The translations under genes and the position numbers were made by a program. Below, one piece after another: positions 1 through 33,613 of a stretch of DNA of 64,000 nt. The stretch is taken from NCBI GenBank assembly GCA_964252035.1, contig OZ176204.1; one strand, written 5' to 3'. The notes under the pieces are model-generated. The model saw only the letters and a program-made list of their open reading frames with translations, searched no databases and was not told where the DNA came from. The DNA comes from Podarcis erhardii. Its lineage: Eukaryota. Positions within the stretch are counted from its first letter, which is position 1, and every line of letters begins with the position of its first letter.

Positions 1-941
1 CAGCTGTTTTCGGACTACAATTCCCATCATCCCTGACCACTAGTCCTGTTAGCTAGGGATGACTGGAGTTGTAGTCCAAAAACAGATGGAGGGGCACTGT
101 CAGAGCTGCCCGAGGTCCCAGCTCACAAAGGACCAACGCCAGTTCGTTGTTATATACAAAAGTCTTTATTGAAGTTCAGTTTCGATTTCAAAGCCGTGGC
201 GTGCAGCTCTACGTCTCAAACTCTAGACCGCCGAAGCTCCGTCTGAATCTCCTCCCCCCAGACACCAGTTTAAGACTCTAGCCTTGCTCCACCTCTTCCT
301 TTGCTCTTTCCTCCTCTGGGTCCGCCTGTCCACTGGGGTCTTGCCCTTTCTAGACTCTTCTGACGCTGAATCCCCTGAGTCTTCCCCCTGCCTCCGGTGG
401 GCTTTAGGACCTGGTTCCCAATCCAGGTTTTCTGCCGTCCCGCGCGCCTGTACCTTTGAACTTGGCGCGCGTGCCCAGCCGGCAACCTTTCTCCTGACCG
501 TTACACTGCTCCTGTCACTGCTTCCCTCTTCGGGGGGGCTAGCTGGACCTGACTTCCCCTCCGTTCTCTCACTCTCTGATAGAGGCGTGGTCAGCCCTGA
601 CTCATCTTCTCTCCCTACTGGAGGAGACGCTGGCCCTGACACATGGGACTCTTCCCCCCCACTACGCTCTGGTGGGGGAACTGGTCCTGATCTTCCGCTG
701 CTGCTTTGGGAGTCCCCGCTGGCCCCTTGCTTCTGGTGCGTCCCCCCGGGACCCCCCTTGCCCTGGCCCTCGGCGCCCCCCTCTGGGAATCTTCTGAATC
801 ACTGGAGAAACTCATGGAATCTCTCGGGCCACTGTCATACTCCCCTACGCTGCCCTCAGATTCTTCCCCTTCGCTCTCCGTTTCCTCTCTCCCCTGTGCC
901 TCTGCTCCTGAGCCCCTGACAGGCACGTTTGGCCATGACTG
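1..941. mobile_element. hAT-type MITE (5' part outside window) with its right TIR split by an LTR insertion
   Basis: 1-97 matches the interior of the MITE at 23872-24007. The TIR continues after the LTR as ggcacgtttggccatgactg (922-941). Confidence 0.75.
98..921 (-). mobile_element. Solo LTR, 824 bp (probably Gypsy-type)
   Basis: TGTCAG...CTGACA termini; perfect 5-bp TSD ggcac (93-97 and 922-926); minus-strand AATAAA at 170-165; GC/CpG-rich. Confidence 0.88.
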
Positions 942-1203
942 ACTTAGAATGTGCATCCTCATCAGAGGCAAATAATTGTTAAATGCAACTGATGGTCCCA
1001 TATTTATAGCTGGATTGAGGCCATTATTCTAAGAGGACAGATTATCTAGGGGGAAAGAACAACTAGACACCAAAACAATCAGGAGCAGAAGCAAGAAAGG
1101 GAGAGAGTGGCAAAGAAAAATGACACTCTGAAACCTCTGGAACAGATAAACTATAAAGATGTTGCAGGGATTGAGTCCTAATACGATTATTGCCCTGCCG
1201 TCT

Positions 1204-1289
1204 GGGGATTAGCAATCTGTGGCCTCTAGCTCCCAGCACCCTCAGCCAGAATGGCCAATTGTCAGGAGGGCCACAGGTTGTTAATCCCC
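1204..1289. mobile_element. Internally deleted hAT-type MITE
   Basis: Imperfect inverted ends ggggattagcaatctgtggcc / ggccacaggttgttaatcccc with a MITE-like interior. Confidence 0.55.
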
Positions 1290-3433
1290 GCTTTAGTTAT
1301 TTCAATGCCACTGACTACGAATGTTTCCACAGGTGATGCCTAAACTCATTTCTGAATAGAAAAAGCATAGTTCTCCAATCAATTTAGAAGCAGCAACTCT
1401 TTTACATTCTACCCTTTACTAGCAATATTAACAAGTGACGTTCCAGATGAAAAGGCATTCTTAGCATAATTTAAGAAAAACACATTGAGAAGGAAATGGA
1501 AAGCCAGCCCTAAGCCTCTTCACACTGCATGTTTCTCCTCAAGGAAGGCTCCCCATCTTCACAGAAATTGTAAAGGGGAAGATTCCAATTTGCACTAATT
1601 TCACTTTTAAATGATGCTAAAAATGAAGATCTGCTCAGGATACTATGTAATGTCAGTGCACAGCCCTTTAGCACGTGATGATTAAACCCCCTCGAGAAAT
1701 GCTTGCTAATCATTTACATTACTAATGTATACTTAGCTTACAAGAGAAGAAAAATAAAAATAAAATTGAGCCTGATGGAATGGCTCACACAGCATTTAAC
1801 ACAGCTAATGCCTTTCTAAGATGCACTTAAGGCATTTTTTTTTAAATAAAAAAATGTTTTAGACATATACCAGAAACCCCAAAGCTGCTGCTTCCAAACA
1901 TATTTCTATTAAAACACTAAAGTGCTGTCTGCCCTGCAGTTTTCTGAATACTTTAGGCAGTGATGTGCCTCAGATGATCTGCCTGCTACATTTCTGCCTA
2001 TTTAATGAGTCCGTTTTCCTAAACACAAAATTAAATACATGGCTCACAAAACTTGGGGGCACCCCAGAACAAATGCTACTTAAAGGAAGAGACCCATTAG
2101 GCACATTTATGTGCATTCATTGTCTGCATTTGCCAAACTTCTCTTGTGGTGTATTCATTTTAAGTTGCTGGTTAATAGCATTTTTCCAAGATAACACAAT
2201 TGTTGCAAGTCTTAAGAAGGGTGGGTTGTTGTTGTTTTTTAAGGAATGAGGCTGCTTCTGTGATGAACACAACTACACAGGTGTCACCTTCTCATGATTG
2301 ATCTGTGGCATAAAAACTCACTATTACTGAGGTATCTCAGCCGTATCAAAGCGAATGCATTCATTCATGTAGACCCCGAAATCTGGTGAATCTCCTCAAA
2401 ATCCCAGAACTACTTTAGGAATAGGGATACGACACTAGCAAGGATACTCCCTCCTTTTGCAGAAAAATGGCCCACCATTTCATGAACACTTTTCCTTTCC
2501 TTATTAACTCATTTTTAAAAAGGCTCTTTAAAAGCTGTGTGCTCTACTTCTACAGTGCTGAGGAGCACATTTTCCTTGGTGACTTAATGATATTTTTTCT
2601 AAGTAGTATATACACTGTCTAAATCATTAACATCATCACAACATGCCACTCACAGTTCCCAAAATGCAAGTTTGCTTGTTAGCTCTGTTCTTTTTTGGCA
2701 TAAAATTATTGTTTGGGAGAAGCTATAAAGCAGCAAGGACTAGATTTCTCAGAGCAAATAACTACTTTCTGGAATTCAAGTCATATTAGACAAACATTGG
2801 TAACAAGCCATAAGAATGAACACTCATAATAGTATGTCTATGTAATATATTAAACTGCGTGGCTGGGTTCTTAACTTCACATTTTATAGCAACATAAGGA
2901 AATGTTAGGCTGTTTACTTCAAATGCTATCACCCTTACAAGCTTTGCTCATGTACTATAGCACGGTGTACCTCAATGATAAATGTGTGAGATTTTAATGT
3001 TATAAAGCCATTTGCTTATTTTCTTTTTTTTTTGCTGAAATGCTGGCTGCACATGCTGTTTAAATGAAGCCAGTGGTCAGCTATATTATTTTCGTTCAGT
3101 CTGTTCAATTTTGTGGATAATACGGAAAAAAGAGAAGGTGAGTGTCTCCATAACCCCTAATAAATAAAAATTACTTACCCTTTTTGCCATTGGAAAGTCA
3201 CCACTGGCAGTCTTGATGGGATGCCCTAGCTGGAACTGCAGGTATGGAGAAGCAACCCTGCTTTCTCCATTCTCTCACCTCCAACATTCAGTGCAAACAA
3301 GACAGGACTTGCCACAGAACCTACTTTGCCTTTCCTTTGCTCACCCCAGTGCTATATTCTAGTGCTACCACTAGCCCACTCAGCCCAATCCACCCATTTA
3401 CATAACACTGCATGTGGAAAGAGGCACACATAC

Positions 3434-4114
3434 CCAGGACTCGGATTTGCATGACTGCTCCATGTAAACCAAAGAACATCCACAGTGGCTGGGAACAGTC
3501 CACGCACACCTGCATGCCGGCGTTTGCTCCATTGTGGCTCAAGTGAAGTTCGCCTTCTGAATTCACCATGAATCCCAAAATGTCTCCACTCTGGAGAGGC
3601 ACCAACACCCTACAAACTGCCCAGAACTCTTTCCGGTCAACCAAAGACTCTGGATTATAAGGAAGGTCGCTGGGCCTCAGGGTGCTGGGATCGCAAGTGG
3701 TCACCCCGTAAGAGAGTGTCCCAGTACGTGAAGTGTTGGATTTATTAATCTTGACAAATATGGTCTCATTGATTCTAAGGGGCCTGCTGGTGAAAACCAA
3801 AGTTCTCTCTTCTCGAGCATGCTCCAGGCGAGCCACTGTCTGGTCATCCAGGATTTTAATATGGGCTCCCCTGAGCTGATGGAAACGCAGGTCACTTTCA
3901 AGCTGGGATGGGAGAAGGTGGGAATGTTGAGAGTTGAGGGAGTTCTGTGGAATGGGACACATGGCAGCCATGACATGGAAGTTCTCCTCCTGGAGGTTGA
4001 GGTCGCAGAGGCTCACAGACAGACGGGTGTCCTCAGTCTCTCTGCGTAGTGAAGGCCGCCGGATAGCCGTGAAGGATCTTGGACGGAGACAATCTGGAGC
4101 AATAATTTCACTGT
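3434..4114 (-). CDS. NEURL1: NEURL1 exon 4 (linker + NHR2 domain)
   Basis: ttttcag|ACAGTGAA ... GTCCTGG|gtatgt, 681 nt, phase 1-1. Translates (D)[25 protein letters not shown]...[21 protein letters not shown]...[12 protein letters not shown]...[18 protein letters not shown]. Confidence 0.98.
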
Positions 4115-6639
4115 CTGAAAATCAGAACAAGAGAGGGAAGAGATCACCTGAGGGTAATGTGAACGTCTAGTTTACATTATCAGTTCCTCTATGAGCAATG
4201 CAAGCTTTTGCTGTTACCAGCGTGTTTCCCCTTCTACATGATAAAACAGTCAGATCACTCCATTTTCCAGTGAAATCATCTCTGTAAATATTTCAAGTAC
4301 CATTTCAGGCAGACTCTCTCTGAGTCAGTATCAGATATTGAGGGTGGGGGGCAACACTTGGAAAAGTGAATCAGATGGTAAATAAGCAGGATCCATCAGG
4401 AAACCACTGGCAGATTGCTGGAGAGCCCTGAAAAGTTACGCTCTGTCGACATCTAGAATATGTTTCATGGTAAAAATGAAAAGGAAAGCTGAGCAGGTAT
4501 TTGTCTTTAACATTTTAGAAAGAGGAGGGTGAATCCACAGCTATGCTTGTCCAAACACATTCCCTTTCTTTCCACCTGAGTGGGGAAAGCGGAGTTATGC
4601 CATATAAAAGGATAACTGATTCACACAAAGTGGTCTTGCAAATGCATATCCAAGATGAGAATAATGGCTCTAACTCCACTCAGAAGTTGTGAGAAATGCC
4701 TAGTTTACTGGTGACTAGTTTACAGTGTTGATGTACTCTTAAATTTACTGCTGTCCTTAGGCTGAAATCCTATACTACCTGGGAGTAAATTCCATGACAC
4801 TCAATGCAACTTCTGGGGACATAGGGTTGAATCTAGACTTGATCTCACTTAAGAGTAGATCTACTGAAATCAATGAGAGAATTTAGTCATGACTTACTTA
4901 ATTCCAACTGATTTTAATGGGTCTACTCTAAGCAGGACTAAATTGCAGTCCAACCCAGTTTTTTAAATAGTATTTTACTGTATTTTTATTATAGTTTTTT
5001 GGTTTTGTTATCAGTTCCATTTGGGTGCCACTGTGGCAGAGAGCACAACTCATTATTTTATAAAAGAAATGAATAAACATTTCAAATTCATTCATTCAGC
5101 AAAACTGAGTTAAGATTAGTAATGGAGAGTAATGGAGTGGGACTCAGTTGTGGCTAATATAAATCTCACTGACTCCAATAAGACAGTCATGATGAACGTC
5201 ACATGTTATCTGGTCTGTGTTTTCCCCTCAATATACTTTAGACTGTATTCGTTCTACAGTTTAGTACCGAGGATAGTGAGGTTGGATCAGTATTTTATCT
5301 GGGTTTCAGGTAAAGTTTCCCATGCATTTTATCTACTTTTTATTTTTATTTTATCTTGTCATATTTTCAAAAGTAACAGAAAGCAGACAGCAAATCAGGA
5401 AAAACTAAATCATCACCATCATCCCATATTAGCACAGTAAAAACAACAAAAAGCACTACACACAGAATGCAATGAAGAACCTTAAAAACTTTTTTTTTAA
5501 AAAAAAGAAAATCATGGAAATATTTTTTGAACAGACCTTTTAAAATAACTCAGTTTTTTACTAGCTTCCTAAAACAATCAAAAGATAGAGCCTGGCAAAT
5601 ATTATATAGCCAATGTGATGCTCTCCTGAAGTTGTTGGATACCTCCCACCAGCCAATGGCCAGGGATGATGGAAAGTGCTGTCCAGTAACATACAGAGGG
5701 ACCATTTCAGCCACAAGCAGAATTGCAATTGACATTCCACACCTTCAGGTGTACCAATCTGCTAGGTTCTATGTACATTGGTGGGTGTGGCATAGTTGTT
5801 GTGGGCGGGGCCATTTGAAGCTTTACCACAACCTTTACAATGGCCAACTCTACAATTATATGATTCTATGACATCATTTATGACCCCTGCTTATTTGTGC
5901 AAGTAATATTTTCATTAGCGAAACCTCTTTTCTAGCCGTATGTTTTAATGAAGGGCAGGCATGACACTATTAACACCATCGTGCTATGATGTCAGTTGAT
6001 TTGTGGGCTGCTCACTGATAGCGCTTCCAGTCAGCAAGACACCTCACCAGGGTTGTTGTCTTGCCAGCTTTTTTGTTTCAGTGAAGTACTTCCCTTAGGA
6101 CCACAAAAGTATGTCTCAAGTGAGTGCTGACAGGCAAGCCATCTGTCTTTGATTTGGTTTATAAAAAACATTTCAGCTGCAGGGCTTGTTCACGCTTATG
6201 GTTTACTCCTAAGGCTAAGTAATTAGTCTGTTGCTCACTATAAGCAGAAGTATGAATGCAGCCATTCAAGGACAGCTGTCACAATCCCTTAGCAATTCCC
6301 CACCACCGCCACCCCGGTATAAAGTTTGGATTAACCTGCCTTATCCAACTCACTGAAGTTGTCCGTGAAGCCTAAATTAGACATCATTCTAATTGAACAG
6401 TTAGCAGCCACATTCGGGTGTTGTTGCTTTTTTTAAAAAAAAAAAACCCAATACCAGGTCCATTTTCATGTGTAATGGCAGTGCCCAGTGAGGGTCAATT
6501 TAACCCCTTCTTCCTCAGCCAAACTCCACACACTTACGCTCTGCAATGAGCCTTAGGAGAAAGAAAAGCCTGCACTGAGGCTAATCACTCAAAGACCTGG
6601 TTTCCATATGTAGCAGCATGGAGTATTGTTCTACTTCAA

Positions 6640-6644
<5 letters not shown>

Positions 6645-6674
<30 letters not shown>

Positions 6675-6682
6675 GTGTGCAC
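6645..6682. repeat. (GT)10(GC)5GTGTGCAC compound microsatellite
   Basis: Direct reading: 38 bp of uninterrupted purine-pyrimidine alternation. Confidence 0.95.
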
Positions 6683-9600
6683 TATTTTTGAAATATACTT
6701 TTTTTAACTCTCTTTATAAAGAAAATGGTAAATTATCAGGAACTGGGCTAGGTTGGGCTGATTTTTATCCTCATTGCACTAGCTGTATAACGGCAGGGAT
6801 TTTAAACACGGGGAAACATTTAAAAGTTGTAGCCCTCACCTGTAACCTGAAGTTTAGAAACTTGGGTAAAGACTCGGTAATTAAAAGTTTAGAAATGAAT
6901 TAAATTAAAGCAGCCCATTTTGTCAGCTCAGTGTTCTACAATCTCATTCCCATTTTATGAGGTAAGAAAGAGGTGATAGAAATCTTAAGAGAGTAGGATA
7001 CATTCTACCACTTGATATTGCGATCACCTAGAAAAAGCATACTGTTGTTTACCCCACATCACATTCAGACAGTATTTGAGTTCTGAAGCACCATGCATAC
7101 AGGTTGCTAGAAGAAAGGACACCACTTCTCTGGTGCAAAATCCAATGCTAATGTAAAATTCACTGGAGCCACTGGCCTGGGCAAGGGAGAGTTAAATCTC
7201 CCTTCTCCATGCACTGCAATCCCCATGAAAATTACAACTTCCCCCCAACACACTTTTCTTAACAACAACAACACATGGGGTTGCTAACCATGCAGTTATT
7301 CTAACACCCTGCATGACCCTCTGCCTGTGCTTGCAGTGCTCTGTATGCAAGGTGAGAATGGCAGGGCTCTGAGACAGTGGGACCTTTGCAGAAATGGAGC
7401 CATGACTGTGCCACTCTCTAAAACATTGTCCCTGTCTGGAACCAGTCCAGTTAACAAGAATGTATGGAGAAGCAAAGCAATCTTCTGCACTGAGATTATT
7501 CAAACAATGCCTCCGTAATGTAGATAAGACAATACAGCAGAACAAAAAAAGGCAGATGATGCAGGCAAATATAACATCAGAATGTAGAAAGCCATGATTA
7601 CTAGAAAGAAGCAAGGCAGAACTAACAGATTCAACAGCATTATTGGCCCTTTTGTGTTAGATCTGGTATAATGAGAACTATACAATCATTATAGAATAAT
7701 CAGATTGACTGTGTAAAGGGCAACCACAAATATATTGATACTCAAGCATGGAGGCATCTAAAGTACAAAACCTATCTGCTGACTGGGTGACTGTACTTTC
7801 TATAATAAATAACTGTAGAATACTTTCCATTTCATAACAGATACACCAGTTGCCAAAATGTTTGTGAGCACTTCTGATTATTTTTAATGGCACCAGGAAG
7901 GATTCAAACTGCTACTTCAAAGACGCAAGTTTTCCATGCCAATGTTCTAACTCAGGAGTCTTATTCTGCATCCAATGTCAACCCAAAGGGCATGTTCAGA
8001 ATTTTCATGCTTCCTTCATGCCATTTGGCCAATTTGGCTGCATTTCAGGAACAAATAAATGAGTTTGCACATGTGCTTAAATGCTTTTCTGCAGATAGCA
8101 TCTGAGACTCTCAAAAGCATTCACTAGGAAGCACAAGAGAGATGGTCGGATGATTAACATTCATGGACATGAGCCAAGTGGCCCAGAATGTCTTCCTTGT
8201 AACAGGAGCAATTTAAGTGATACCAGTTTTTGCCCAAATAAGTGCTCATTTCCCAGGCAAACCTACTGCAAATGCACAAGTCAAAATTTGGAAACTATAT
8301 TAAGATATGCACTTTTTGCATATGTGTACAAATTATATTACAGGAAAGGAAAAAAGAAAATGCTGAAGACCTAAGATGCATCATTTGCTAGTCTTATCTA
8401 TTAATGTAAATTTAAATGTTCTTTGCATCAGGAACAGCTGCAAAGCAAATAGCTGAAACAGCAGCTCTAATCTGTAACTCTAGCTCCAAGGGCTGGTTGA
8501 AAGAAGAAGGGAACCAATGAAGGGCATCTATAGCTATCCATGCCAAATGATGCGTCTGAAAAGCTCAACTATTTGGTGAATTTGCATTGTATGTTGGGCT
8601 AATGAGTGCTTGAGTGAGAATCTTGGCAGGCCCAGCTGGTAACTTTTGTTCATCAGCGATACAAATAAAATTAGGTATGTATGTATACTTTTGATACAGG
8701 AACTGCACTCTTGTTGTTACAGATGGATTGTACACTCAGAAGCTTCTGCATGAATGCTTGCTGGAAAAGTTCACTTGTTTGCAAGTTTCTTGCCCCCTAA
8801 ACAGCCTATTTAGTCATCTTTCCTTCATGTTCAGATTGAATAACCTCACAGAAGTATTAAGAGGAAGGATGAAAATATGAGTTAGATTCATATTAAATTC
8901 AACTTAATATAGGTGATTTCTTATGTTTGCCTTTTCTATCTTGTTCTCAGCCAAATGTTTCCACTTAGCTGTGTTTTCTAATCAGTATTTGCAAACATAA
9001 TTAGTTATTTGTTCATCTGTATTTTACCTGATTGGTTCCTGAAAAAAATTGCAAAAGGGAAGGAAACTTGGTTAAGTTTGTATTTTTAATATTTCTTGCT
9101 AATATGAACATGTAATGAAAATATTTTGATTAATGTTTGATTCCTATTTAATATTCATATTTAATGTCCACATGCTACCTGCCAGGGCTGTCACAAGTTC
9201 TCATTCTTTGTGGATAATCTCACACATTTTGGTTAACACAGACTGGGGTGTGAGAACATATCTATAAAAAGCATCCTGTAACATTATAAAGCTACTTTCA
9301 CCATGGTACAGTAAATATGGGCATGCAGCTGCAGTTCAGGTAGCCAATGGATCTAAATGATCAAGTTCCTGCCCACTTGTCAAATAAAATAGTGTGCTAC
9401 TAAAACAAAACAAAACACAGTAATATGCATTTATTTATTGGAATCTGTTGGGGTTGAGTAGGTCACTCTTTAGGGTCTTTAGAGTTTATGCCTACTTCCT
9501 TGCTACTCCCAGTGCCAAATATAATCTTTGTGTAGCTAGCTAAAAGGCACCTGGCCATTTCAAACCTCTAGCATACAAAGTATGAAGAAGTGCAGAAGTG

Positions 9601-9697
9601 CAGGAAACCAAGAGGCAAATTGCTGTCATTATGTATTTTCTTATGTTTGTAACCTTTCAAGATGGGACTTGAGTAGAAGAAATGTGGATTTCATCTA

Positions 9698-9770
9698 CAT
9701 CCACCCAGGCACTAACCAAACCCAGATCAACTTAGCTTCAGCAAAATGGTGGCCTGCTATGCCGTGAGAC
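9698..9770 (-). mobile_element. 5S rRNA-derived SINE head fragment (SINE3-type)
   Basis: Minus strand gctgaagctaagttgatctgggtttggttagtgcctgggtggatg aligns by eye to 5S rRNA GGAAGCTAAGCAGGGTCGGGCCTGGTTAGTACTTGGATGGGA. Too degraded to be a 5S gene. Confidence 0.6.
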
Positions 9771-12700
9771 CACATCCGAGGCGACATACAGTGGAAGAAA
9801 CTGTACTTCCAACCCCCATGCTCAAGATGAAAACATTTTGTAGCACTTTTCCAGTTTTTATCTTGAAAATGATGGAATGTATTCAAAACAGATGAAGATG
9901 CTTGATCTCATTTGTAGATCTAGTGATTAGAAAGAACCACATGTGATCCAGGGATCTTGCTTCTCACCTGCTTGTAAATCCTATGCCCCATCCTCTTATC
10001 CTCTTAACAAATATCAAATTCCACCTCAGGAGCTATGACTGATATAACTGGATGGACCACTCTTGCCTAATTTCCCATTTTGTGATATTTGTATTCCATT
10101 TAAAAAAAGACAATGAACAGATATTTAAGTTTGTAAAAGTTTCTGCAAAGTTAGTTATATCAACATCTAGCATTATGCCTCCACCTTGTCACATGTGGAA
10201 GGGACATAAGCAAACTTGAAATGCACTCAATTTAATCTACATTCCTTTATTAGATTTATTTTTTTCCAGATCAGTGAGCTTATTCCATAAGCAATACCAC
10301 ATAGCCACTACCAGAAATATACAGGTAAACAAACAAGAAGAAAAAGCACATCACGTATTCACCGAACAACAGTACTTTGGAGGTGGAAATTTTTTTGGAC
10401 TGTCACACCACTGCAATGCCTTTCTGGCAATCAAACCATGGGAAATCTCCAAAGTTGTAAAGCACAAATGAAAACAAGTGTGCACATTCTCAACTTTTGA
10501 ATTGTTCAAAAGGAAGTGATCCATGTAGGAACCAGCCTTTTGATTGTCTTGTTTTTCAACCAAAGAACATTTTAAATCTTGTTCGTGGCAGTTTCACATG
10601 AGCGTCAGGTTTCCTGGGCACCAGCAGAGTAAGCATCTACGCTAATAGCTATTTGGATGGATGGATAGTTTAATGCCGAAAGCAGGTTGCTATGGAGAGT
10701 GTGACACAGGAATCTGAGATGACTCAAGTGCACTGGTGCACAAATTGACCCAGCCTATAGCTTCTGTTGATATTTGCTGTTTGCTTCCCTCATCCCAGTA
10801 CGATGGAAACAGATCAAAGGCCAGAGTATTTGAAGTATGCTATTCATCCTCCCCCACTCCCCATTTTCCTCCAGAGGCTCCAACACTATGTACAAAATTA
10901 TATTAAACATCATGCATGTAGAAATCCTTTAAGTGGTGTCAATTATTCTGTGCTGATTTCCATGTGCTCCAGCAACCCAAATGTGATCCCAAATCTTTCT
11001 TCAGCAGCCAATCCTTACTTTTTATTAAGTACTGTTGGTATCTGCTTTTGATGTGAATAGAATGCTGATTCCCACTCCCATGTTAATTGTCAGCATGAAG
11101 AATACATAACCGTTGAACACTATACAAAAGTAACTAAAGCATTACTGCTAGCTATCTACCCATTCACCCACATAGAAGGGCATTTGCCTCTCGACAAGGA
11201 GGAGACCAGAGCAGTAGTAGGTGTGACAAATAGTTATGTCCACAGGAAAGTCAGAAGCACAGGATTGAAACAGCATGGTAGTTCTACTACACTTGGACAT
11301 ACTGCTCTCTCAAGTGCCAAATAAGAGCAGAATCAGTGGTCTAGTGATAAATTCTGGAGCACAGGAGTTCATCATACCTCCAAGAGAGTCCATAAAATGA
11401 AGTGAGTTATGTTGATCCACTATTATACACTACTCAAAGAGCAGTGGTACAATGCATAAAATCCACTTTATGATTATCAGTATGACTGCAATACCATGCA
11501 CAGTTTCCTAGGAGTAAGCTGATACAAGTTCCCTCAGGAAACATTTTTCATTAAGCCAATAAAATGGCTGAAATACCATTTGTTTTCTTTCTCATGTTCT
11601 AGAAGAATCATGTTCTTAAGAATAGCATAAACATTATGCCATCATTCCTTGATTTCTAAAAATGTCATATTTATATTATGCAAAGAAATTATTTACAGAA
11701 TTCATAAGCATCCTCCTTATGAAGTCCATCTGGCAGCCAGGAGAAGGTCTTGGAACTTGTTAATTTGTTTACACTGTAAACCACTTCATAATAAGTAAGA
11801 AAGTTCTTAATGCTCATGTGCAAGAATAAGGTATGTGAGCATTGCACTATAGTTAGGGCTAACCCTTCAAATCCAGTTTCTAAAAATGTAAAAGGAAAGA
11901 GGGTTATTTCATTCTTCCCTTTCTTGATACCAAACTGGTGTCTTTATGAAAAATTATTAACATGCACTCAATTTAAATTATTACTTTTTGAGTGCCATCT
12001 GTCAGAAAAGGTTAATGGCATAAGAAGGACATAAAATGATCATGATTTCAATACTTCAGTCTACTGTCAGTCCTATCTACTATTAAGGAGCTCATTCTCT
12101 GAATACCAATGTAGACACAATAACATCATCCACATACATGGGGTGCCAGCAAGCTTGGGAGAATACCAAGATTTGCAGAAGTATGCAAAATATGGGGTGA
12201 GAGGTAATGAATTTTTTTGAAGCACAGTGATAACTCAGTGGCCACAGAATACTGCGAGCTATTGGTTGAGAAACAGAAAATGGGATTGGGGGAAGGGAAG
12301 GGAGTTTCCTGGCTGATTGGTTGGCTGTAACCCTGAACATGAGCACGCCACATGGTACCATTTTGTTGTGGGTCCTACTTGTGTTTCACTAGTCTCCTGA
12401 AAGCTCAGGGCGGGGAGAGGGAGACAGACAGGCATAATGAAACTGAATCTGCACATTTGTCTCCATCATTGTAACAGGACATGAGGCCAGTACCAAGCAA
12501 AAGGTGAAGCTTTTTTTCCTCCTCCATGCAGTTGTGAACTCAAGCAGATGACGTATATCTGCAGAATAAAACCACAGGCTACCTAGTCCAGCACTCTGTT
12601 TCAAACAGTGGGTGATCAGAAACAACCACCTTTTCCACAGCATATTGGACATTAGAGAACCACCTGCTTCACCTGGGAACACCCACAACCATTTTCATGA

Positions 12701-14812: not shown

Positions 14813-15245
14813 TGTCAGATGCTGGTGATGGTTGCTCCTGAGTAACCAGGCAGGATTCCGACCTGGCTTTTACAGGTTTTATTGTGCAAACTATTTACAG
14901 TGCAGACCCACAAAGTTCATGTCCATCTCAGTCACTTGCAGAATCCGGGAATGGCCCCTTCCGGTTTCTCCCCCAACATAAGAACTTTGGCACCCCGAGC
15001 CTCCTCCTTGCGTTTCACCCCTCTGCGCAAGCTGGGTGTGTCCCTCCTGGCCAGCCTGGCTAGGTGAGGCGCTGGGGCTCTCGGCAGCATCCTCAAGCAC
15101 TTTCCTCGCTTGGCTGGCCCCTTTCCTCTCTTCTCCACTGGAGGTGTGGCTGGAAGAGGAACTGCTCCTCAGGAGTTTTGGATGCTCTCTGTATCCCAAC
15201 GGCCCCCCTGCCTCCCTCCCCTGTTCCGATGGCAGTCCCCTGACA
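14813..15245 (-). mobile_element. Solo LTR, 433 bp
   Basis: TGTCAG...CTGACA termini; perfect TSD gcaat (14808-14812 and 15246-15250); minus-strand AATAAA at 14883-14878. Confidence 0.88.
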
Positions 15246-15254
15246 GCAATTTTA

Positions 15255-15276
15255 TATTATTATTATTATTATTATT
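15255..15276. repeat. (TAT)7 microsatellite
   Basis: Direct reading. Confidence 0.9.

Positions 15277-17870: not shown

Positions 17871-17874
<4 letters not shown>

Positions 17875-17922
<48 letters not shown>
17875..17922. repeat. (GA)24 microsatellite
   Basis: Direct reading. Confidence 0.95.
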
Positions 17923-17925
<3 letters not shown>

Positions 17926-20335: not shown

Positions 20336-20555
20336 CAGTGGTACCTCGGGTTACAGACGCTTCAGATTACAGACTCTGCTAACCCAGAAATAGTACCTCG
20401 GGTTAATAACTTTGCTTCAGGATGAGAACAGAAATTGCGCGGCAGCAGAGGCCCCATTAGCTAAAGCAGAGGCCCCATTACCTCAGGTTAAGAACAGTTT
20501 CAGGTTAAGAACAGACCTCCAGAACGAATTAAGTTCTTAACCCGAGGTACCACTG
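20336..20555. mobile_element. Tc1/mariner-type MITE, family A copy 1
   Basis: TA|CAGTGGTACCTCGGGTTA...TAACCCGAGGTACCACTG|TA: TIRs with TA TSD. Confidence 0.92.
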
Positions 20556-23424: not shown

Positions 23425-23511
23425 ACAATCGTATGCATGTCTACTCAGAGATAAGTCCTACTGAGTTCAACAAGACTTACTCCCAGGTAGGTGGGGGTAC
23501 AGGAGTGCAGC
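23425..23511. repeat. Short (~85 bp) imperfectly palindromic interspersed repeat; related degraded copies near 4760-4950, 34590-34670, 47540-47610 and 52590-52650
   Basis: Recurring caatcctatgcatg..tactcag..taagtcc.actgagttcaa...acttactccc...ggattgcag pattern, judged by eye. Confidence 0.5.
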
Positions 23512-23871
23512 CCCAAAGCGAGTGTAGAAGTGATGAAGAATTATATGTCAACAAGCACCTGAGCTTTGACACCACAGAATACAGAATGGAGATGCGTAAG
23601 AAACAAGATTAAGAGGCTTCAAGACAATTGCCAAGATTAAGCCTGCCAAAGGCAATTGGAACATGCTATAAATAAAATGTCTGAGCATTAATGTCAATTG
23701 CATAAACTCATTCTAAGCGGCAGGGGAATCTGAATCCTGGTGGCAGGTGCCTCGCTGTACTGGTTATGCTGCTTTGTACTAACTGCATTTAGCTAATTGG
23801 CAGAGACAAGATATCTGCAAGACACTTCTGTCTTTTAGCTGTTGTAATGAAGCAGAGTAAAAAGTTTAACT

Positions 23872-24007
23872 CAGGCATCCCCAAACTCGGCCCTCCAGAT
23901 GTTTTGTGACTACAACTCCCATCACCCCTAGCTAACAGGACCAGTGGTCAGGGGTGATGGGAACTGCAGTCCCAAAACATCTGGAGGGCCGAGTTTGGGG
24001 ATGCCTG
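23872..24007. mobile_element. hAT-type MITE, 136 bp, intact
   Basis: Perfect 35-bp TIRs caggcatccccaaactcggccctccagatgttttg; perfect 8-bp TSD gtttaact (23864-23871 and 24008-24015). Confidence 0.95.
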
Positions 24008-25666
24008 GTTTAACTCTTTGTGAAGGAAAGGAAGATAAAGAAAGTAGGTAACTTGCTGTGAGACGTTTCGAATTCATAGGGAATTATGGGTGTAGGGAAG
24101 GTTGATGGAACTTTAACATCTGTAAACGGATGGAGAGCAAGTGAGTCCACTAGATGTTAGCATTGCTAGCAAACTAACAAGGCTGAGAATTCCATATGTT
24201 TCCCTCTTAAATATCATTACTTAAAATAATATAACAATTCATTCCTTCCATCCACTTTCAAACCCAGAGACTGATTTCAAAATTATTTCTGCTACGAGTC
24301 TTATTTTAGGCATTAAAAGTGCATTTTAATGCCAAGGTTAGCTATGAGAATATTGCACATAACCTCAAGGTTCAGTGATGTGCATTAGCCCTCTTCTTCC
24401 CTGCCTTGCTAAAATGGGTAAAAATCCCAGAATGATTCACATATAATGCTAGACACATTGTTTACACTATAACACAAATATTATTTTATCAGCAATATTC
24501 TGATCTTTCTATCAGAATATAAGCCACTCATACCATCATTTTGTATGCATTAAAGATACAACAATGTGACCTTCTCTAATGAACAGTTACACTAACTTCA
24601 ACTCACTTAAGATTTGAATAAATCTTAAATGTTACATGAAGCATCAGTAATATCACAGATATCTGTCATACACTATGCATACACTATCCCTATGCAAAAG
24701 CTGCTAAGCATGTCAACTCATGTAATCGCAAAGTATGTCAACTCATAGTGTAAAAAGGATTGTTGTGTTAATTGGTCTTGAATTTTAGTTGAACCTCACA
24801 GCTAAACTTCCATTTATTCTGGATCTTTGCCTCACAAGTGCTCAGGAACTCTCAGCTCACGAGGAACTCTCACAACAGAGCTTTTAAAGCACAATAAAAT
24901 GATTTTTCATGGCTGTACTTTTATTGTGTAATAAAATGATCTACTAAGGATTCTCCTAGAGCCCAGGAAACATATTTTATTTTCTAAACCTAATATTTTT
25001 AAGAAGAGCAATTTCATTTAAATAGAAGTAACAACCAGCAAATCCTTCTTTCAGGTAAAATGTGAGCCATGCATAAACTATGAAATGCATTTACCCATGT
25101 CAGATTAAGAGCGTTAAATAAGATAATGGGGAACTTTTATGGAGTGCATTCCATGCTTCAGAATGTGCACCAATAGTCTGTCATAACAAAATTCTTCTAT
25201 TAATGATATTTATTTTCATTATGATTTATTACTTCCAGACCCATTTTGTTTGCTTGGTCTTTGACGTCCTTAGGAACAAGAGTGAGGAATGTAAGGTTTA
25301 CATGGATGGCATCAAGCAGCACTTTCTAACAACAAACACGGTCTGATTCTTGTTCTGCTGTGTAGACAAAACATGGGTGAAACTCCACTGGAATTTATTT
25401 AGCATTCCAGCTTTGCTCAGGCTTATTAATTAAAGGACAAAGGTGGGAGATATTTTAAGGCTGAGACTACTAAACATATGAACTGAATCACTTTCTACCT
25501 TTTTGCATCCTGTTCAAGATGGGATAATAAAGTAGTGAACACAACCTTTATTCATGTTGTGCTGTTTCCAGAGGGTTGTACTTTTTCCAAAGGGACAACT
25601 ATGATAATACATTGCAGCAAAAGCAACAGAGAGTCCTGTGACACCTTAGAAATGAACAGATTTATT

Positions 25667-26045
25667 ATAACTCAGTTGTAGAGCACATGCATTGAATGTA
25701 GAAAGCCCCAGGTTCAATTCTTGGCATCGCCAGATAAAAAGATATCAATGTTATATTGGTTTTTATGCTTTCACTGGGATTGTTGTATTGTTAGTTGATT
25801 TTATATATGATGTATCCTACTCTGGTATCCCTTGTGAGATGAAGGGCAGGTTAAAAATTGATTAAATAACAGTAGAATGGGATCTGGTTTTTATTTGCAA
25901 GCTTCCTTTGCAACAGGGCCGTGTGCAACAGGGCCGTGTGCAAATATTGAAAATAAATAAACAAATGTGGAAGTCATCTGCCTGAAACACTGGCTAATTG
26001 CTGCCAGTGAGAATGGACAATCTTGGGCTAGTTTCTATGTCCCTA
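25667..26045 (+). mobile_element. tRNA-headed SINE (Squam3-like), interrupted by ~240 bp of other sequence
   Basis: Head taactcagttgtagagc...ggttcaattc (A/B boxes) at 25667-25733. The body resumes ~25975 (tgcctgaaacactgg...gctgccagt...gacaat...ctatgtcccta). Confidence 0.55.
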
Positions 26046-26493
26046 GATGACATGAGGCCAAATGGCAATGAAATGCAATGATCAGTCTGTGACAATTCTA
26101 TATAAAAGCACAAGATAAATGAAATCATGCTCACACACACATGACACTATCACATAAAAGCTTATACTACAAAAAATGTTAGTTTTTAAGGTGTTGCAAG
26201 ACCCTTTGTTGTAATACTGTTTGTGCAATGTACAGCTATTGGCCTTAAGAAAGATGAGCATTGATCACAGCACAAGCAAAGCAGCACAACCATAGGGTCT
26301 TTCTGACTTACAATAATTAGAAAGAGATAAGGAACTGTGACATACACATTTCAGAAAATGGCATTACCAGAAATAATAAGGTATAATGGATTAATCCAGG
26401 TAAGATGTTTCCACAGAACAGAAACTTTTGCTTTCAGCAATAAGGTGACTTACCCTCCCATGACAAAGTCATATTTTCCAGAAATGCACCTAC

Positions 26494-26815
26494 CTAGCAG
26501 CTGCACTCCACGTGTGAGTCCATAGACGTCAATCAAAGCCCACAATGGTTCAGTGGTCCTCACTCCACTGAAGAACAACATGGCGGCAGAGTTATTAACC
26601 CGGTAAAATACACGTCCCTTTTTGTCCACCCAGAATGCAATGATGTTTCCCTCATTAGCAAATTCTTCTGGGAGGGCCTTGGCCCAGAATCCACTCTGAG
26701 AAACGAGGTCTGGACATGCATACTTGGGCAGGGTTTCTGGGTTAATCCTAGAGGGGTCCTTAGAGGTAAATCCAAGTCGAAGAGCCCCACTCCAACAGCA
26801 CTGCTTCTTTGTGAT
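26494..26815 (-). CDS. NEURL1: NEURL1 exon 3 (rest of NHR1 domain)
   Basis: ttcag|ATCACAAAG ... CTGCTAG|gtagg, 322 nt. Translates [69 protein letters not shown]...[17 protein letters not shown]. Confidence 0.98.
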
Positions 26816-28065
26816 CTGAAGAGAGGGAAGAACGGAAGCACAATTTGAATTTTTCATTAGCAACATGCCATTGTCTAAGGGATGGAGAATAAATGTGTGG
26901 TGTAGCATTACTGAGCTGATGGGGACAAGGGCTTGCATTTACCGTATGTGGAGCAGGAAGGAGTTGGATGCTTCCAGCAGTACTGGATATGAATGGGTTT
27001 TAGAAAAGGAGGTTGCATTAGGAACTATATGATTGCTTTGCAAGTGGTGGAAGGAGTGAGGAAACACTACTAAATAGCAGTATATTGTGTGGGGATCCTC
27101 ACCCCACAAGGTTATAAGTGATGGCAATTACTTGGAGATTCAATGTTATCTGCAACCAGATCACATAATGCATTTTTGTCTACAATGAACCACTCTGACT
27201 GTCCCTGAACTGGTACCCATGTAGCCTATTCTCATGATTGCAGTAACAAACATGAATACGTGATTTCTGCTGTACTCTTTCGTCTCTATAATTTGATTCA
27301 GTTCAATTAGATAGATCATTCCAAAGATGCATAGATTAAAATAAGTAGGCTAGTTACCCTTTACACAAATGAAGGCGTTGAAACCCATTGTGAAGCAAGC
27401 AACGCCAGAAAGCTGGCTGGAGACTAAACAGGAGATATTGTTGAAGCTCTAGGTCTGGAAATGGTAACATTTATTCATTCTCTGAATTGCTCATGAAACC
27501 ACCTTTCATCAATTAAAATGAAGTGGTTTACAATAGGTCAGATATAATAAAAACATTCAAATATACAACCAACAGCACACTGAATAAATAAGGCATTAAA
27601 ACAATAATCAGGAATTTAAAATATAAATCATTACAATATCATACAGCAGCAATCATCATCACTGAATTTCCATCAAATTTCCGGGAAACAGATGAGCCTT
27701 TACACTACAGGATACCCGAAGCCCAGTAAGGTCATCCATACTTCCAGGGAAACAAATTCCACAATTGGAGGTTACTACAAAGAAAAACTGCATGCATTCT
27801 GTATGTGTGCAAGGGAATGCAATACTGAAATAAAATCAAAGTAAAATAAAATAAAATCCAGCAGCAAAGTTTTGAAGACAGGGTTCCTCTGGATATAGCT
27901 GCAATAACAGCAACACTCAAAAGCAAAAATAAAATTTAACAGCAAAGATATCCAGTGGAAGCTACAAGTAAGTTGCTGGTATTTAAGTAGATTGGGGCTG
28001 TTTCTTCAGATAATTACATATCTGTATCCACCCTTATCCTTGGTACCTTATCTTAGATGTGATGC

Positions 28066-28146
28066 TTCCATATTGCAGGGAGTTGCGAGGATTGGACTAG
28101 ATGACCCTTTGGATCTCTTCCAATTCTACAATTCTTTGATTCTGTT
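28066..28146 (+). mobile_element. CR1 LINE 3' end fragment
   Basis: ggactagatgaccctttggatctcttccaattctacaattctttgattctgt, a CR1-type tail. Confidence 0.7.
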
Positions 28147-29373
28147 ATCCTTATCCTTGCAACCCTTATCCTTACAAAAGTTCTAAAGACTGATATTAAA
28201 AGCAGTTTATTTAAGGACGTGAGTGCCAAGTGGATAGGTCTCTTTCTAAGGCGGTTGGATGGCATCTTGCATGCCTGCTTCTGTCAACTGCTGCAGCCAA
28301 GGTGGTGCCAAATGTATTGCTTTGATATCCTTTGGACCACGTCAGTGAAGTGGAGAGTGGGGTCTTGTCTTCTGGCCATCCCAGGACCTCCACAGACACT
28401 GTCCAGGCTTGCTATAGTAAAGACCACACTTGCCTCCGCACCACTTGTCAGACTATCACATCCTCAAAGTTGCAACAAAATGCAGCAAAACAAGCTAACT
28501 GTACTGAATGTGTAATAAGGAAGCAATAATAGTAGCCTCATTAATCACTTTTTTAAAAAAAAAAAACAACTGTTGGATTATTCATCATAGCAATTTTATT
28601 GCAGAACTGCAGGAGCTCGTGGGAAGGAGATAAATGGTGCTTCATCATTATTGGTTTTGTACCATTTTATCTGTACTTTACACTAACTGTATGAGATAGC
28701 CAGTTAAATGTTCAAACAATGCAGCACACAAGGCACTCCAGCTATTAATCCTGCAAAGCAACACAGGACAGGGCCCTGGAGGACAGGAAGGGAAAACAGC
28801 TCACAAAGCAAAAGCATAAGCCAGAGGATTCTGCTGTGCCACAGAGACCCCTGGGGTATATTCTCAACTTGTATTCTGGGTCTTCAGAGAAAGTAGTTGA
28901 GGGATGATTTAAATACATCTGAAAATACGTTGACTGTGTTTGCATGTAATGCTAAACTGTGGTTTAGCAATAGCTGCACAAGCAGAGAGGAAACTATACA
29001 AAGTACAACACTCATGTGCTCCCCAAGAGGAATAAACCAGGGTACAATTTCACTTTTGCCACTTCCCGGCTTGTCCTCTCTTGCAGATTAGGTGTGTTAA
29101 TTTCAAATTAACAAACAAGTTTATGGTTCCTGGTTTGCACACAAGCCAGGAACCACCAAATGCAAAACTGAATCCTGGTTTATTCACCCTCCTGACCATG
29201 TGGGGAGATGATAGGAGGGCAGGGGAATACTTTACTCAGGCTCACAGAAGCTCATGTGCATAATGCTAAGCCATAGTTTCGCGCTCCATACAAACCCTCC
29301 CATTGCGAGGTCCTGGTATGCCATATGAATTTTGGTTGTCACAAAGAAGTGAATGGGAAAGGCATCAACTCAC

Positions 29374-29615
29374 CTTGAGCCTGACTTGCTCATAGATAAC
29401 AACTGCCCTGTTGCTGAAGGTGATGGCATTACAGAAGCTAGCCTGACGCTTGACTGCTTTCTGTGTGGTGTCCATGATGATCTGTGACCCCTTGGTATGG
29501 GGGTGGAACAGCAGTGGGCTGACTGAGAGAGTTCCACACTGTGGGATGGGCAGACAATGCTTTTGCTTGTGGTGGCATCGGTGAGATGACGCAGGAAATG
29601 GTCCACCTATGGAGT
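29374..29615 (-). CDS. NEURL1: NEURL1 exon 2 (start of NHR1 domain)
   Basis: Long pyrimidine tract + ctcag| acceptor and |gtgag donor, 242 nt. Translates (D)[20 protein letters not shown]...[48 protein letters not shown], recognisable as NEURL1. This frame is not in the ORF track. Confidence 0.97.
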
Positions 29616-30149
29616 CTGAGATAGAAAGGAAAAAGAGAGAAACTGAGCTTTAAAAAGGAAAAAGGAAAAAATCTGATGAAATTCCTAAAATGAAATCTAC
29701 TGTTGCTTAGCCATGAGACTAATATACAAGAAACCTGTGGGATAGCATCAAAACCTCCTTCAAACACTTTACATAGATCATTTAAATGTACAGTCCTGCA
29801 AACCCATTTAGAACTTTGGGACATATGCAGGAAGAAATTGTACAAGCAATCCTGAAGAGACTGGGTTAGTTTGGCCAAAGAGGGGGAAATAATGAAGGGT
29901 AGAACAAAGCTCATACTCCAAAACTGAATAGCAATTTGCCTTCTATGACTTTGGGAGGTCACAGATGAAGGCTACAAATAAAATTCCCACTGCACACAGC
30001 TTCCCTATGCATTCATGTAGGGCTTTAACCTTCAAATGTGCATATGGAAGGTAGCAACTGAATCACTTTTGTTTAATGAACAATAGTAGGCAATTGGCTG
30101 TTGCCTTGAATTACCAGCTGATATATATTGGTTTAAAACGCTGTGGACA

Positions 30150-30290
30150 ATTTGTAAGAGAACAATGGTTAAATGTTTTGAGGGAAGCTATGGGCTCTCC
30201 TTCACTGAAGATTTTGAAAAGACCAAATAAGCAAATATATCAAGGAGATTTAATAGGAAACCTACTTCAGTGCAGATCAGTTAAATAGCT
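30150..30290 (+). mobile_element. Degraded CR1 3' fragment
   Basis: gtaagagaacaatggttaaatgttttgagggaagctatgggctctccttcactgaagattttgaaaag resembles the CR1 3' region. Confidence 0.5.
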
Positions 30291-30405
30291 TTCTTGGTTA
30301 TCTGATTATTCATTTTAATCACTTACATGGATGCCTTAGCTTTGGTGTATAATCCTGTACCTGGTGCTCTGTTGTGTTGCTCATAGTGTAACCTCCCCAT
30401 GGGGA

Positions 30406-30490
30406 AAGGTCATAAGCCAGTGGCAGAATATATGCTTTGCATGCAAAGGGGGCTAGACACAATTCTTGACATCTCCAGGCAGTTACCTAG
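30406..30490 (+). mobile_element. Degraded tRNA-headed SINE 5' fragment (Squam3-like)
   Basis: cataagccagtggcagaatatatgctttgcatgcaaagg...caattcttgacatctccagg. Confidence 0.5.
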
Positions 30491-31401
30491 ATCAGGGTTC
30501 GGTATAACATGCTACACAAAGTAGCTGCAATGCAAAACAATCATTTTATGACAGAAAGTAGTTAACCACATGGATGCAAAACAGAGAGTGGGTGTATGGA
30601 GATAGTTTCCAGTAAAGCATACAGAAATAAAAAAAGAGCAGTAGTTTGTTAATGAATGGATGAATTCAACAATTCAGCAACCTTCCAAACACAAGCTTTA
30701 TGATTCTTCTGAAAGGCTGCAAATTGATTTTGTCCTTTGTATACCTATCTCTCATTACACAGGTCAGCTGTTCAGAAATAGGTATTGACCCGAAACCATT
30801 TTTTTTAAAAGAACAGATCCCTAAAGGCACTGGCAAAGTCTCCATCACTGCACATATTTATAATCAGGAAATAACAGGAGTGTGGTAACTAGACAGAGTT
30901 CAATCTTTTCTTGCCTAAAGCATAGGGTCAGGTTGGATGAGTCAAGTACACAATGTGCCGCTTTCTGAACGCTTGCTATGTGCAAATTCATTTATCTGAA
31001 CACAAGGAATTAGTACGCAAACCTCACTATACAGCACAGATTTAGATATCTGAATAGTGAGCATTCTTTACTTCCTTGTTTGCCTTTTGCTGGGTGGCTG
31101 AGAAACTGTGGTGATCTGTACTATAAGCAAGGTTTCAGAGGGTTTTCAGGTTTTTTGAGGTCAAAAATTCTGTGGTCAGGAACACATTAGAAATTTCCCC
31201 ATAGGAATCAATGGAAATTATTGGCTCATTATGTGAATGCTCACCTAATGAATGATTTCAAGGGAACTTATTGCGTTCTGATAGCGGGACCTGCATGTAG
31301 TTTTTCTTCAGGCTGTACTGTCAAGAAAGGCATGCTACATTTCTATCCTAAACTATATTAACCCCATTACGATTTTTTTTAAAAGTATGTGAACATTAGT
31401 A

Positions 31402-31627
31402 CAGTGGTACCTCGGGTTACATACGCTTCAGGTTATAGACTCTGCCAACCCAGAAATAGTGCTTCAGGTTAAGAACTTTGCTTCAGGATGAGAACAGAAA
31501 TTGTGCTCCGGCGGCACGGCAGCAGCAGGAAGCCCCATTAGCTAAAGTGGTACCTCAGGTTAAGAACAGTGTCATGTTAAGTAAGGACCTCCGGAACGAA
31601 TTAAGTACTTAACCCGAGATACCACTG
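31402..31627. mobile_element. Tc1/mariner-type MITE, family A copy 2
   Basis: TA-flanked CAGTGGTACCTCGGGTTA TIR; same interior as 20336-20555. Confidence 0.92.
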
Positions 31628-32009
31628 TATGTTATGAGACAGAGTTGATTCAGGGGCTATGGGGAGAATATTATAAAGTGTCTCCAGGCACCTAGACTAC
31701 CTTCAGAATGAATGTGTTTATGTGGAAAATCACTTGTTTGAAAATGCTCTATCAAAGGCTAGCTGCAGACTAGCCATGTTTGTATTTGCTAACTTTCCAT
31801 GTGCACAGAGGTAGTACCACCCCACACTCAAACTTCAGAAAGACCACCACTCAAGTTGCCACAATATTTCTCAAGACATTTATTATGGGGCAAATTCAGC
31901 TGTTGCCCTGCATCCATATTCATGTCTGGAGCATGGAGAAGTGCTGTAATGATGTCACAACTTCTTGATTTTCATGGGGAAGAAAAGTTAACCAACTATT
32001 CAGTTGCAG

Positions 32010-32343
32010 AAAGCCTCAGCGCCTAGGACTTGCCGGTCGAAAGGTCGGCGGTTCGAATCCCCGCGGCGGGGTGCGCTCCCGTTGCTCGGTCCCAGCAGCT
32101 GCCAACCTAGCAGTTCGAAAGCACCCCCGGGTGCAAGTAGATAAATAGGGACCGCTTACTAGCGGGAGGGTAAACGGCATTCCGTGTGCTGCGCTGGATC
32201 GCCAGATGCAGCTTGTCACGCTGGCCACGTGACCCGGAAGTGTCTGCGGACAGCGCTGGCTCCCGGACTCTAGAGTGAGATGAGCGCACAACCCTAGAGT
32301 CTGTCAAGACTGGCCCGTACGGGCAGGGGTACCTTTACCTTTA
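32010..32343 (+). mobile_element. Sauria SINE, young, 5'-truncated
   Basis: B box ggttcgaatccc, Sauria core gcagttcgaaagca...gtgcaagtagataaataggg, (ACCTTT)n tail; CpGs largely intact. Confidence 0.92.
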
Positions 32344-32467
32344 TGAGGGGGAGACTTTCCTAAATAAAAAGCAACAGTTTGCTACCGAGTTGTATCCAGG
32401 AATGGTTTTGCCTTAGTGGAAGACCATTCTCCTTGTGCGGCACATTAGGCTTCTATCCCCTGCTTAC

Positions 32468-32522
32468 CTAACATAGGAAACTCCTGTATATTGAGTCACA
32501 CCGCTGGTTCATTTTAGCTCTG
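32468..32522 (-). mobile_element. Squam3/L2-type SINE 3' end fragment
   Basis: aacataggaaactcctgtatattgagtcacaccgctggttcattttagctc resembles the reverse complement of this SINE's 3' end. Confidence 0.45.
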
Positions 32523-33185
32523 GGGAGCTAAGCTGTTCTACAAGATCAGTAGAAGAAGAGTACATATTTATAGTGATAAGCTAGCTCTGTCGGGCACAGG
32601 CAAAAATGACTCTACAGAGTGTTCCATGTATGTTCAATAAGGATGCATCAGTTGACTTTTTGAAGGGGGGGTGGTGGTCAGAAAGACAGTTGCTCAGCAA
32701 AGTGATTAGCACGAGTCCAAAACAAACATAAACTGGCACTTTGATCTGCAGAGTACTGATAATCTAAAACAAAAACAAGAACCCTTCTGCTAAAAAATAG
32801 TTTTAGAAATGGAATCCAATCCACATTGAAAGATTCTATGCTCTAGAATTAAAAAATAATAATCCCTCAAGGGGTAACTTGAAATGAATCTTACTGCAGT
32901 GTTAGAAACTGCATCTGTTAGATGGGAACTAGAAGATATTTATATAGCAAAAAACTGCATGTAAGTATCAAAATGGAGGCAGTGATGGCAGTATTTGCAG
33001 CTATTGGGGGCAAAGTGAGGTAGTGTTAGAAGGGGAAGCAGGTACTTAATGTAGAAAGCAATCCTTACAACTTCACCGCCTACACAAACATTTAACTCCA
33101 ACTCCTAATCACAACCCTGGTAGATGGTGAGATCCAACATAATCTACTCATACCATCTTCTCACCACTGTGGTTGTGTATGAGCC

Positions 33186-33613
33186 TGTGAAGGTTTGTGT
33201 ATGCTCTTCGCAATAAGCACACTCAAGAGAGATATTTACAGTTCTTTATTTTACATATGTACAAGCAGTACAGTACAATCATGCATCCGAATCGTCCAAT
33301 TCAAATTCAGGGAGCGGTCTTCTCCTGCTTCTCCTCCAACAGAAAAGGCAGGGGAGCTTCATGGGACATCTCTGATCCCTACGCTTTAACCCTCTCCTTT
33401 CCTGTGCCAAAGGCACAGGCTCTCCGTCTGTTCCTGAACTCCCTGTGTGGTACTGGGGCTCTACTTCAGCATCGGAGAAACTTCCCACCTCCTGGCTCTC
33501 TTCCTCTTCCCCTTCCGTCACTTCCTCTCTGTCTCCTGACTGTTCCCGCTCTGACTCTTTTCCTCCCCCCCCCCCACCCCAACTCAAAAGCATTCCTTGG
33601 CAGTCCCATGACA
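33186..33613 (-). mobile_element. Solo LTR, 428 bp
   Basis: TG...CA termini; perfect TSD gagcc (33181-33185 and 33614-33618); minus-strand start TGTCATGGGACTGCC matches TGTCAGGGGACTGCC of the 14813 LTR; minus-strand AATAAA at 33250-33245. Confidence 0.88.

Follow-up and report, generated by a model that had tools for sequence, protein, structure and literature searches.

Coding sequence in the U3 of three lizard solo LTRs: the predicted end of a Gypsy Pol protein in one family and a probable, unrelated Pol tail in another

Human immunodeficiency virus (HIV) and mouse mammary tumor virus (MMTV) carry coding sequence in the U3 region of their 3′ long terminal repeat (LTR), in the form of separate genes with their own start (nef and sag, respectively). 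Polyproteins that run on into an LTR are described in the available excerpts of several reports on retrotransposons: in plant CRM group A elements the polyprotein enters the 3′ LTR in all cases, with the LTR encoding the CR motif (PMC3059260), in Beetle and several Bingo elements it extends into the 3′ LTR (PMC3605345), and in the pufferfish V-clade1 pol partially overlaps the LTR (PMC11117352). Excerpts of the same kind describe Sushi LTRs, which start with TGTYANR and have an AATAAA near the 3′ end, the U3 of fish Sushi being T-rich (PMC3601003), and the disordered C-terminal half of Ty1 integrase, with its bipartite nuclear localization signal (NLS) and its short motif for tethering (PMC8487063, PMC7459421). 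Here we analyze three solo LTRs (LTR1, LTR2, and LTR3) with long open frames in their U3 regions, located in a window of 64,000 nucleotides (the whole stretch analyzed) of Podarcis erhardii contig OZ176204.1 (assembly GCA_964252035.1). An original prediction, made on the same DNA, proposed that all three encode a common, undescribed U3 peptide. We find that the coding signal is real and that its explanation is mostly known, being a variant of the published pol-into-LTR arrangement. In our reading (probability roughly 0.75), the predicted Pol protein of the LTR1 family runs into the 3′ LTR, and LTR2 and LTR3 likely carry a different tail of the same origin.

LTR1 (921-98, minus strand; 824 bp, TGTCA...TGACA ends, target site duplication (TSD) GTGCC) belongs to a Podarcis-type chromodomain Ty3/gypsy family. 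The coding part of its U3 (223..920) opens at 920 and ends with a stop at 225-223, 52 bases before the AATAAA (165..170, starting 73 bp from the LTR 3′ end); in this copy the frame shifts once, within a G-run near 761. This frame matches two Podarcis muralis Gypsy Pol models (E 1e-24 and 2e-20, 125 candidates), and a representative library yielded three further true relatives among four matches. The alignment to Pol begins at codon 1 of the LTR and continues in the second frame up to the final Pol residue, with an identical stop. Since the match covers the C-terminal 209 residues of Pol, the frame of LTR1 is best read as the integrase C-terminal tail, entering the LTR from upstream, and not as the separate U3 peptide of the original prediction; about 700 of the 824 bases would thus code for the integrase C-terminus. 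We consider it almost certain from these protein matches that the predicted Pol/integrase tail continues into the 3′ LTR. The basic motif RRTQRRKEQR (298..327) lies within a longer basic end block with Trp and Cys that is conserved in the family.

The order in Podarcis Pol is protease, reverse transcriptase (RT), RNase H, integrase, a degenerate chromodomain, a linker, and the LTR-encoded tail. We inspected the junction in 17 proteins (15 of the 23 cluster members, P0001, and P0005). Fifteen reach the junction peptide and two end before it, while the whole tail is present in 12 (209 aa in 11 of them, 218 aa in one). Directly upstream of the tail, the proteins have a Gly-rich peptide, which presumably corresponds to the polypurine tract. 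Among the 11 full-tail Pol copies, the acidic start of the tail differs by 4.4% and the basic end by 7.0%, versus 15.7% in the middle, with RT (5.2%) and the integrase core (2.2%) as reference. A similar profile is seen in five divergent LTR1-family tails, in which pairwise identity is 58-68% across the final 110 columns and 33-49% in the middle. LTR1-like sequence occurs in sequencing runs of six organisms from nine studies (word share 0.21-0.72), and the family thus extends across related species. A 140-residue ‘hypothetical protein’ of Podarcis lilfordi has its match confined to the Pol tail.

The LTR1 family shows the features of a chromovirus, namely the Pol order, a Ty3-type RT and integrase, a chromodomain, and TG...CA ends with a short TSD. 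Pfam finds protease, RT, RNase H, integrase, and SH3 domains, in this order, in the Pol protein P0002, whose nearest solved structure in the PDB is Ty3-G Gag-Pol (E 1e-132), other classes being far lower. The chromodomain (P0002 ~1077-1130) follows the SH3/GPY-F region of the integrase and is recognized slightly below the Pfam Chromo cut-off (E 6e-5, 23.3 bits, cut-off 25.1) and by comparison with HP1/CBX5 (E 1e-3); for the end of P0002, the ESM Atlas returned clusters of chromodomains (0.80-0.82), which is a lead only. A Lys replaces the cage Trp and the next aromatic position varies among copies, making methyl-lysine binding doubtful. Between chromodomain and LTR junction lies an acidic, Trp-containing linker of about 150 residues (1131-1289), a region that is internally duplicated in P0001. 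Counting also the U3 part, P0002 has an integrase extension of about 370 residues. The first half of the P0002 tail carries a net charge of -12 and the second half one of +10, with a basic cluster of +9 within 21 residues. An AlphaFold2 model of P0005 is uninformative because its mean pLDDT (predicted local distance difference test) is 41 and even the chromodomain was not resolved; it contains a single weak helix (396-403). With P0002 as the query, a tblastn search of the window detected LTR1 and no internal region of a Gypsy element.

LTR2 (15245-14813, minus strand; 433 bp, TSD ATTGC) is a member of a multicopy family, and LTR3 (33613-33186, minus strand; 428 bp, TSD GGCTC) is its distant relative. 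The coding part of LTR2 (14928..15244) opens at LTR codon 1 and stops at 14930-14928, 44 bases before the AATAAA (14878..14883, starting 71 bp from the LTR 3′ end). That of LTR3 (33279..33612), read with one frame change in a G-run near 33567-33579, stops at 33281-33279, 28 bases before the AATAAA (33245..33250, starting 65 bp from the LTR 3′ end). In LTR2, the motif RRGVKRKEE (15001..15027) precedes a last block with FLCW, a basic cluster, and Pro-x-Pro (14931..14999) that is homologous to the frame end of LTR3, where RRGLKRRDQR (33369..33398) is followed in frame by LFCW and RRSRRR. The original prediction invoked one frameshift in LTR2 upstream of the motif. This frameshift, near 15036, agrees with the family copies, which differ in length there, but a second change near 15003, leading into the block shared with LTR3, had been missed. 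At both sites, LTR2-family copies differ in length from the window copy by frame-changing amounts. In three runs, loose ends occur near 15036 in 20, 15, and 17 contigs, and the depth drops to 442, 309, and 46 (bin means ~12,600, 10,300, and 1,700). Because of the length differences near 15036, the LTR2 motif is assigned to the frame that opens at LTR codon 1. This frame contains no Met, and would therefore be entered from upstream; in LTR3 an in-frame ATG stands at codon 2.

The relationship between LTR2 and LTR3 is visible in both DNA and protein. Their DNA aligns end to end (0/200 shuffles as high), and the peptides, compared with an X at the LTR2 breaks and in the LTR3 G-run, score 97 against 30±6 (0/2000 shuffles as high), while a tblastn search of the window with the peptide of LTR2 recovers LTR3 (E 0.001). 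The peptide match starts at codon 1 and passes through the basic motif to Cys-Trp, the basic cluster, and Pro-x-Pro. It is specific to the coding frame, which has a z of 11.7 and no stops, versus z values of 1.4 and 0.3 with two to five stops in the shifted frames. Together with the Pol match of LTR1, this bears out the earlier view of the U3 regions as constrained protein-coding sequence with an acidic low-complexity part and a basic end. Upon rechecking, the peptide sequences and coordinates, the codons listed for LTR2 and LTR3, and the distances to AATAAA (128, 118, and 119 bp) given at the time also proved correct. The LTR2/LTR3 frame is probably a Pol tail as well, given its LTR1-like entry register, the similarity from codon 1 onward, the lack of Met in LTR2, and the Sushi-like LTR features; the fit of both LTRs to Ty3/gypsy chromoviruses is one of LTR features only. 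An LTR2-like R/U5 (window 14829-14913) also stands near one end of a contig of 3171 letters (depth 151). [quoted passage not shown]

Since the genomic RNA contains U3 only at its end, where it is transcribed from the 3′ LTR, translation of a U3 frame requires that an upstream open reading frame (ORF) continue into it. In the mechanism that we propose, the predicted Pol frame of the LTR1 family would pass the integrase chromodomain, enter the 3′ LTR, and stop just before the poly(A) signal. The tail would stay on the integrase after cleavage as a largely disordered arm, first acidic and then basic. Ty1 integrase provides an analogy by which the most likely role of the basic end is nuclear import and/or contact with DNA or chromatin. 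Reverse transcription would copy U3 into both LTRs, including the 5′ LTR, so that solo LTRs left by LTR-LTR recombination would keep a silent copy of the tail, which then decays. A further-reaching proposal, which we regard as doubtful, is that lizard chromoviruses have, on two or more independent occasions, made almost the whole U3 an extension of integrase, the conserved basic/Cys-Trp end being a new tether that took over targeting from the cage-less chromodomain. Equally tentative is the corresponding analogy, in which the tail would be the vertebrate counterpart of the plant CR motif.

The original prediction placed all three LTRs in a single lineage with a stand-alone acidic-plus-basic U3 peptide, which we now find scarcely credible. 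The layout and spacing are indeed alike in the three LTRs, and a loose pattern fitted to all of them (and thus defined post hoc) is present at that position in just 3-15 of 1000 shuffled U3s. What the three U3s have in common is, however, only this layout (acidic low-complexity, basic end, stop 28-52 bases before AATAAA). When the tails of LTR1, P0002, and P0005 are compared with LTR2 and LTR3, the scores are at shuffle level in five of six full-length tests (borderline in the sixth, at 16/2000) and in all six comparisons of the last 45 residues. For LTR1 itself, the protein scores against LTR2 and LTR3 are reached by 254 and 218 of 2000 shuffles, and the DNA scores by 39 and 10 of 200. As LTR1 has no detectable homology to LTR2/LTR3, we are dealing with two unrelated tails rather than one lineage-wide motif. 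The continuity of the LTR1 frame with Pol contradicts a stand-alone peptide for LTR1, a common start codon is absent, and transcription from a solo LTR starts downstream of its U3. A Pfam scan of all LTR frames gave no family; a DUF5553 match to one frame (E 0.14) was rejected as chance, as was P0006 (Chloroflexi, E 7.5e-4) as a relative, being an acidic low-complexity match. The absence of homology between the tails would also suit another explanation, in which LTR1 carries a Pol tail and the LTR2/LTR3 frame is the end of an accessory ORF (env-like, ORF3, or a spliced gene of the Nef/sag type). The database includes Podarcis Pol proteins, yet no Pol with an LTR2/LTR3 tail was found there, and the ATG at codon 2 of LTR3 could serve as a start. 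The Met-less LTR2 frame with its similarity from codon 1, and the entry register shared with LTR1, speak against an accessory ORF, as does the presence of the 5-bp TSD, TGTCA ends, and a 3′-proximal AATAAA, which LTR1 and, in the excerpt available, Sushi LTRs (PMC3601003) have as well. Moreover, the protein searches reach only relatives that share exact words. We consider an accessory ORF unlikely.

Open read-through with little selection on the protein, in which DNA or RNA signals and a purine-rich composition account for the conservation and for the Arg, Lys, and Glu content, seems very improbable. It would agree with the purine content of the three U3s (59-64%), the end-to-end alignment of the LTR2 and LTR3 DNA, a frameshift in each window copy, and a third-position identity (35/93) that is little under that of the first position (41/93) in the protein-guided alignment. 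The frame-specific similarity and the stops in the shifted frames argue against it, as do the LTR1-family tails, which at ~50-60% identity keep frame and stop despite gaps of 6-21 residues. The LTR2 family adds a synonymous excess: in 40 of the 89 variant rows, with two sites counted twice, 13 of 27 coding-span variants are synonymous versus 7.8 expected (p 0.024), and 11 of 20 versus 5.7 expected in clearly polymorphic rows (p 0.011); the stop codon alternates between TGA and TAA. In addition, length differences are multiples of three in all 11 pieces from DNA runs inside 15036-15246 (24 pieces analyzed of 32 listed, from a total of more than 3100).

Several points weigh against our own reading of Pol tails in all three LTRs. 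Besides the partial sample of the synonymous test, nine of the 11 LTR2 pieces have a non-zero length difference, maybe from two or three events only. Net length keeps the frame in one of three pieces spanning both LTR2 breaks, and the frame is kept without extra gaps in one of four spanning 15003 alone, while one piece crosses 15036 without the length difference typical of the family. One antisense frame of LTR2/LTR3, read with the same breaks, reaches a z of 3.7 (2.5, 0.0, and 3.7 for the three). Some of the LTR2/LTR3 similarity may reflect constraint on cis-elements, because the DNA aligns past the stop as well. The LTR1 tail is unrelated to that of LTR2/LTR3, three of the 15 junction-reaching proteins have an early stop, and the polypurine tract and unspliced junction rest on predicted proteins. 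Searches limited to exact-word relatives yielded no parent protein at E<=10, either for the LTR3 frame (136 candidates) or for the LTR2 frame (591 candidates), scans of metagenome and viral contigs confirmed no parent locus, and the ESM Atlas gave no usable match for the LTR3 frame. Finally, the strict monopartite NLS pattern, which we take to be K(K/R)x(K/R), is not seen in any of the three motifs when they are inspected by eye.

The window consists of intron-rich DNA with a minus-strand, NEURL1-like host gene, of which Neuralized-domain exons were identified by domain matches at 3324-4121, 26453-26938, and 29368-29649; the three LTRs lie within or beside this gene. As the original prediction had it, all three are minus-strand solo LTRs; they have TG...CA ends and an exact 5-bp TSD. 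A TSD scan of the window gave five matches, versus 0-4 (mean 1.25) in 20 shuffles; the TSD-bounded candidates at 37145-38274 (plus strand) and 59377-58371 (minus strand) were rejected as chance-like. The boundaries of LTR2 and its multicopy nature are confirmed by contigs of the three runs (19-31 for each end in each run, agreement ~0.4), which depart from the element precisely at 14813 and 15245/15246 and continue in unrelated flanking sequence. Every window copy has frame breaks (one in LTR1, two in LTR2, one in LTR3), and hence these copies are fossils that would yield no protein. The orientation of the solo LTRs is that of the host gene in three out of three cases, with an AATAAA in each, which may be due to chance. 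A stretch at ~33870-34060 (minus strand), about 250 bp from the LTR3 5′ end, is presumably a squamate SINE-like (short interspersed nuclear element) sequence.

These results remove the claim of a stand-alone peptide system and explain the gene-like appearance of these solo LTRs, from which short gene models can arise. They suggest that U3 does double duty, as a promoter region and as ~100-210 codons of protein, and offer two unrelated conserved end motifs as candidate import or tethering signals of integrases in vertebrate chromoviruses. If one of them does tether, it would be a short testable motif akin to those of Ty1 and Ty5. What appears to be new is coding over nearly all of U3, the conserved end motif of LTR2/LTR3, and a tail behind a degenerate chromodomain. 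A literature search, which covered sources outside Repbase, Dfam, and subscription journals, found no description of an LTR-encoded integrase tail in lizards.

The LTR1 frame differs from the HIV nef/MMTV sag type in being part of Pol, and unlike the LTR1 tail, the integrase tail of Ty1, a Ty1/copia element, is presumably internal and not LTR-encoded. The closest sequences are the Podarcis proteins named ‘Gypsy retrotransposon integrase-like protein 1’ (UniRef100_A0A670KNJ5, UniRef100_A0A670HMP7, and their cluster), whose last 209 residues correspond to the LTR1 U3 frames; the names shown do not indicate an overlap with an LTR, and LTR2 and LTR3 are not matched. The layout, taken to be undescribed in the original prediction, has precedents in excerpts on plant CRM group A, Beta chromoviruses, and the pufferfish V-clade (PMC3059260, PMC3605345, PMC11117352). 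As in CRM group A, the LTR1-family polyprotein extends into the 3′ LTR (at the protein level). Going by the same excerpts, the CR motif replaces the chromodomain in CRM elements, whereas the LTR1 family keeps a degenerate chromodomain ~150 residues before the junction, and the plant elements are centromeric, whereas the window copies are intronic. The LTR1 family is thus not a CRM element. Pufferfish V-clade1, of the Sushi-type chromoviruses, is similar in being a vertebrate Ty3/gypsy element in which, as far as the excerpt describes it, pol overlaps the LTR (PMC11117352). The lizard LTRs resemble Sushi in LTR features, namely the TGTYANR start and the AATAAA near the 3′ end, and the T-rich U3 of fish Sushi in that excerpt contrasts with the purine-rich lizard U3, which is coding nearly throughout (PMC3601003). 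By its description in the parts of the literature covered here, Ty1 integrase, with its long disordered tail, basic clusters containing an NLS, and a targeting motif between them, may serve as the working model for the LTR-encoded tails.

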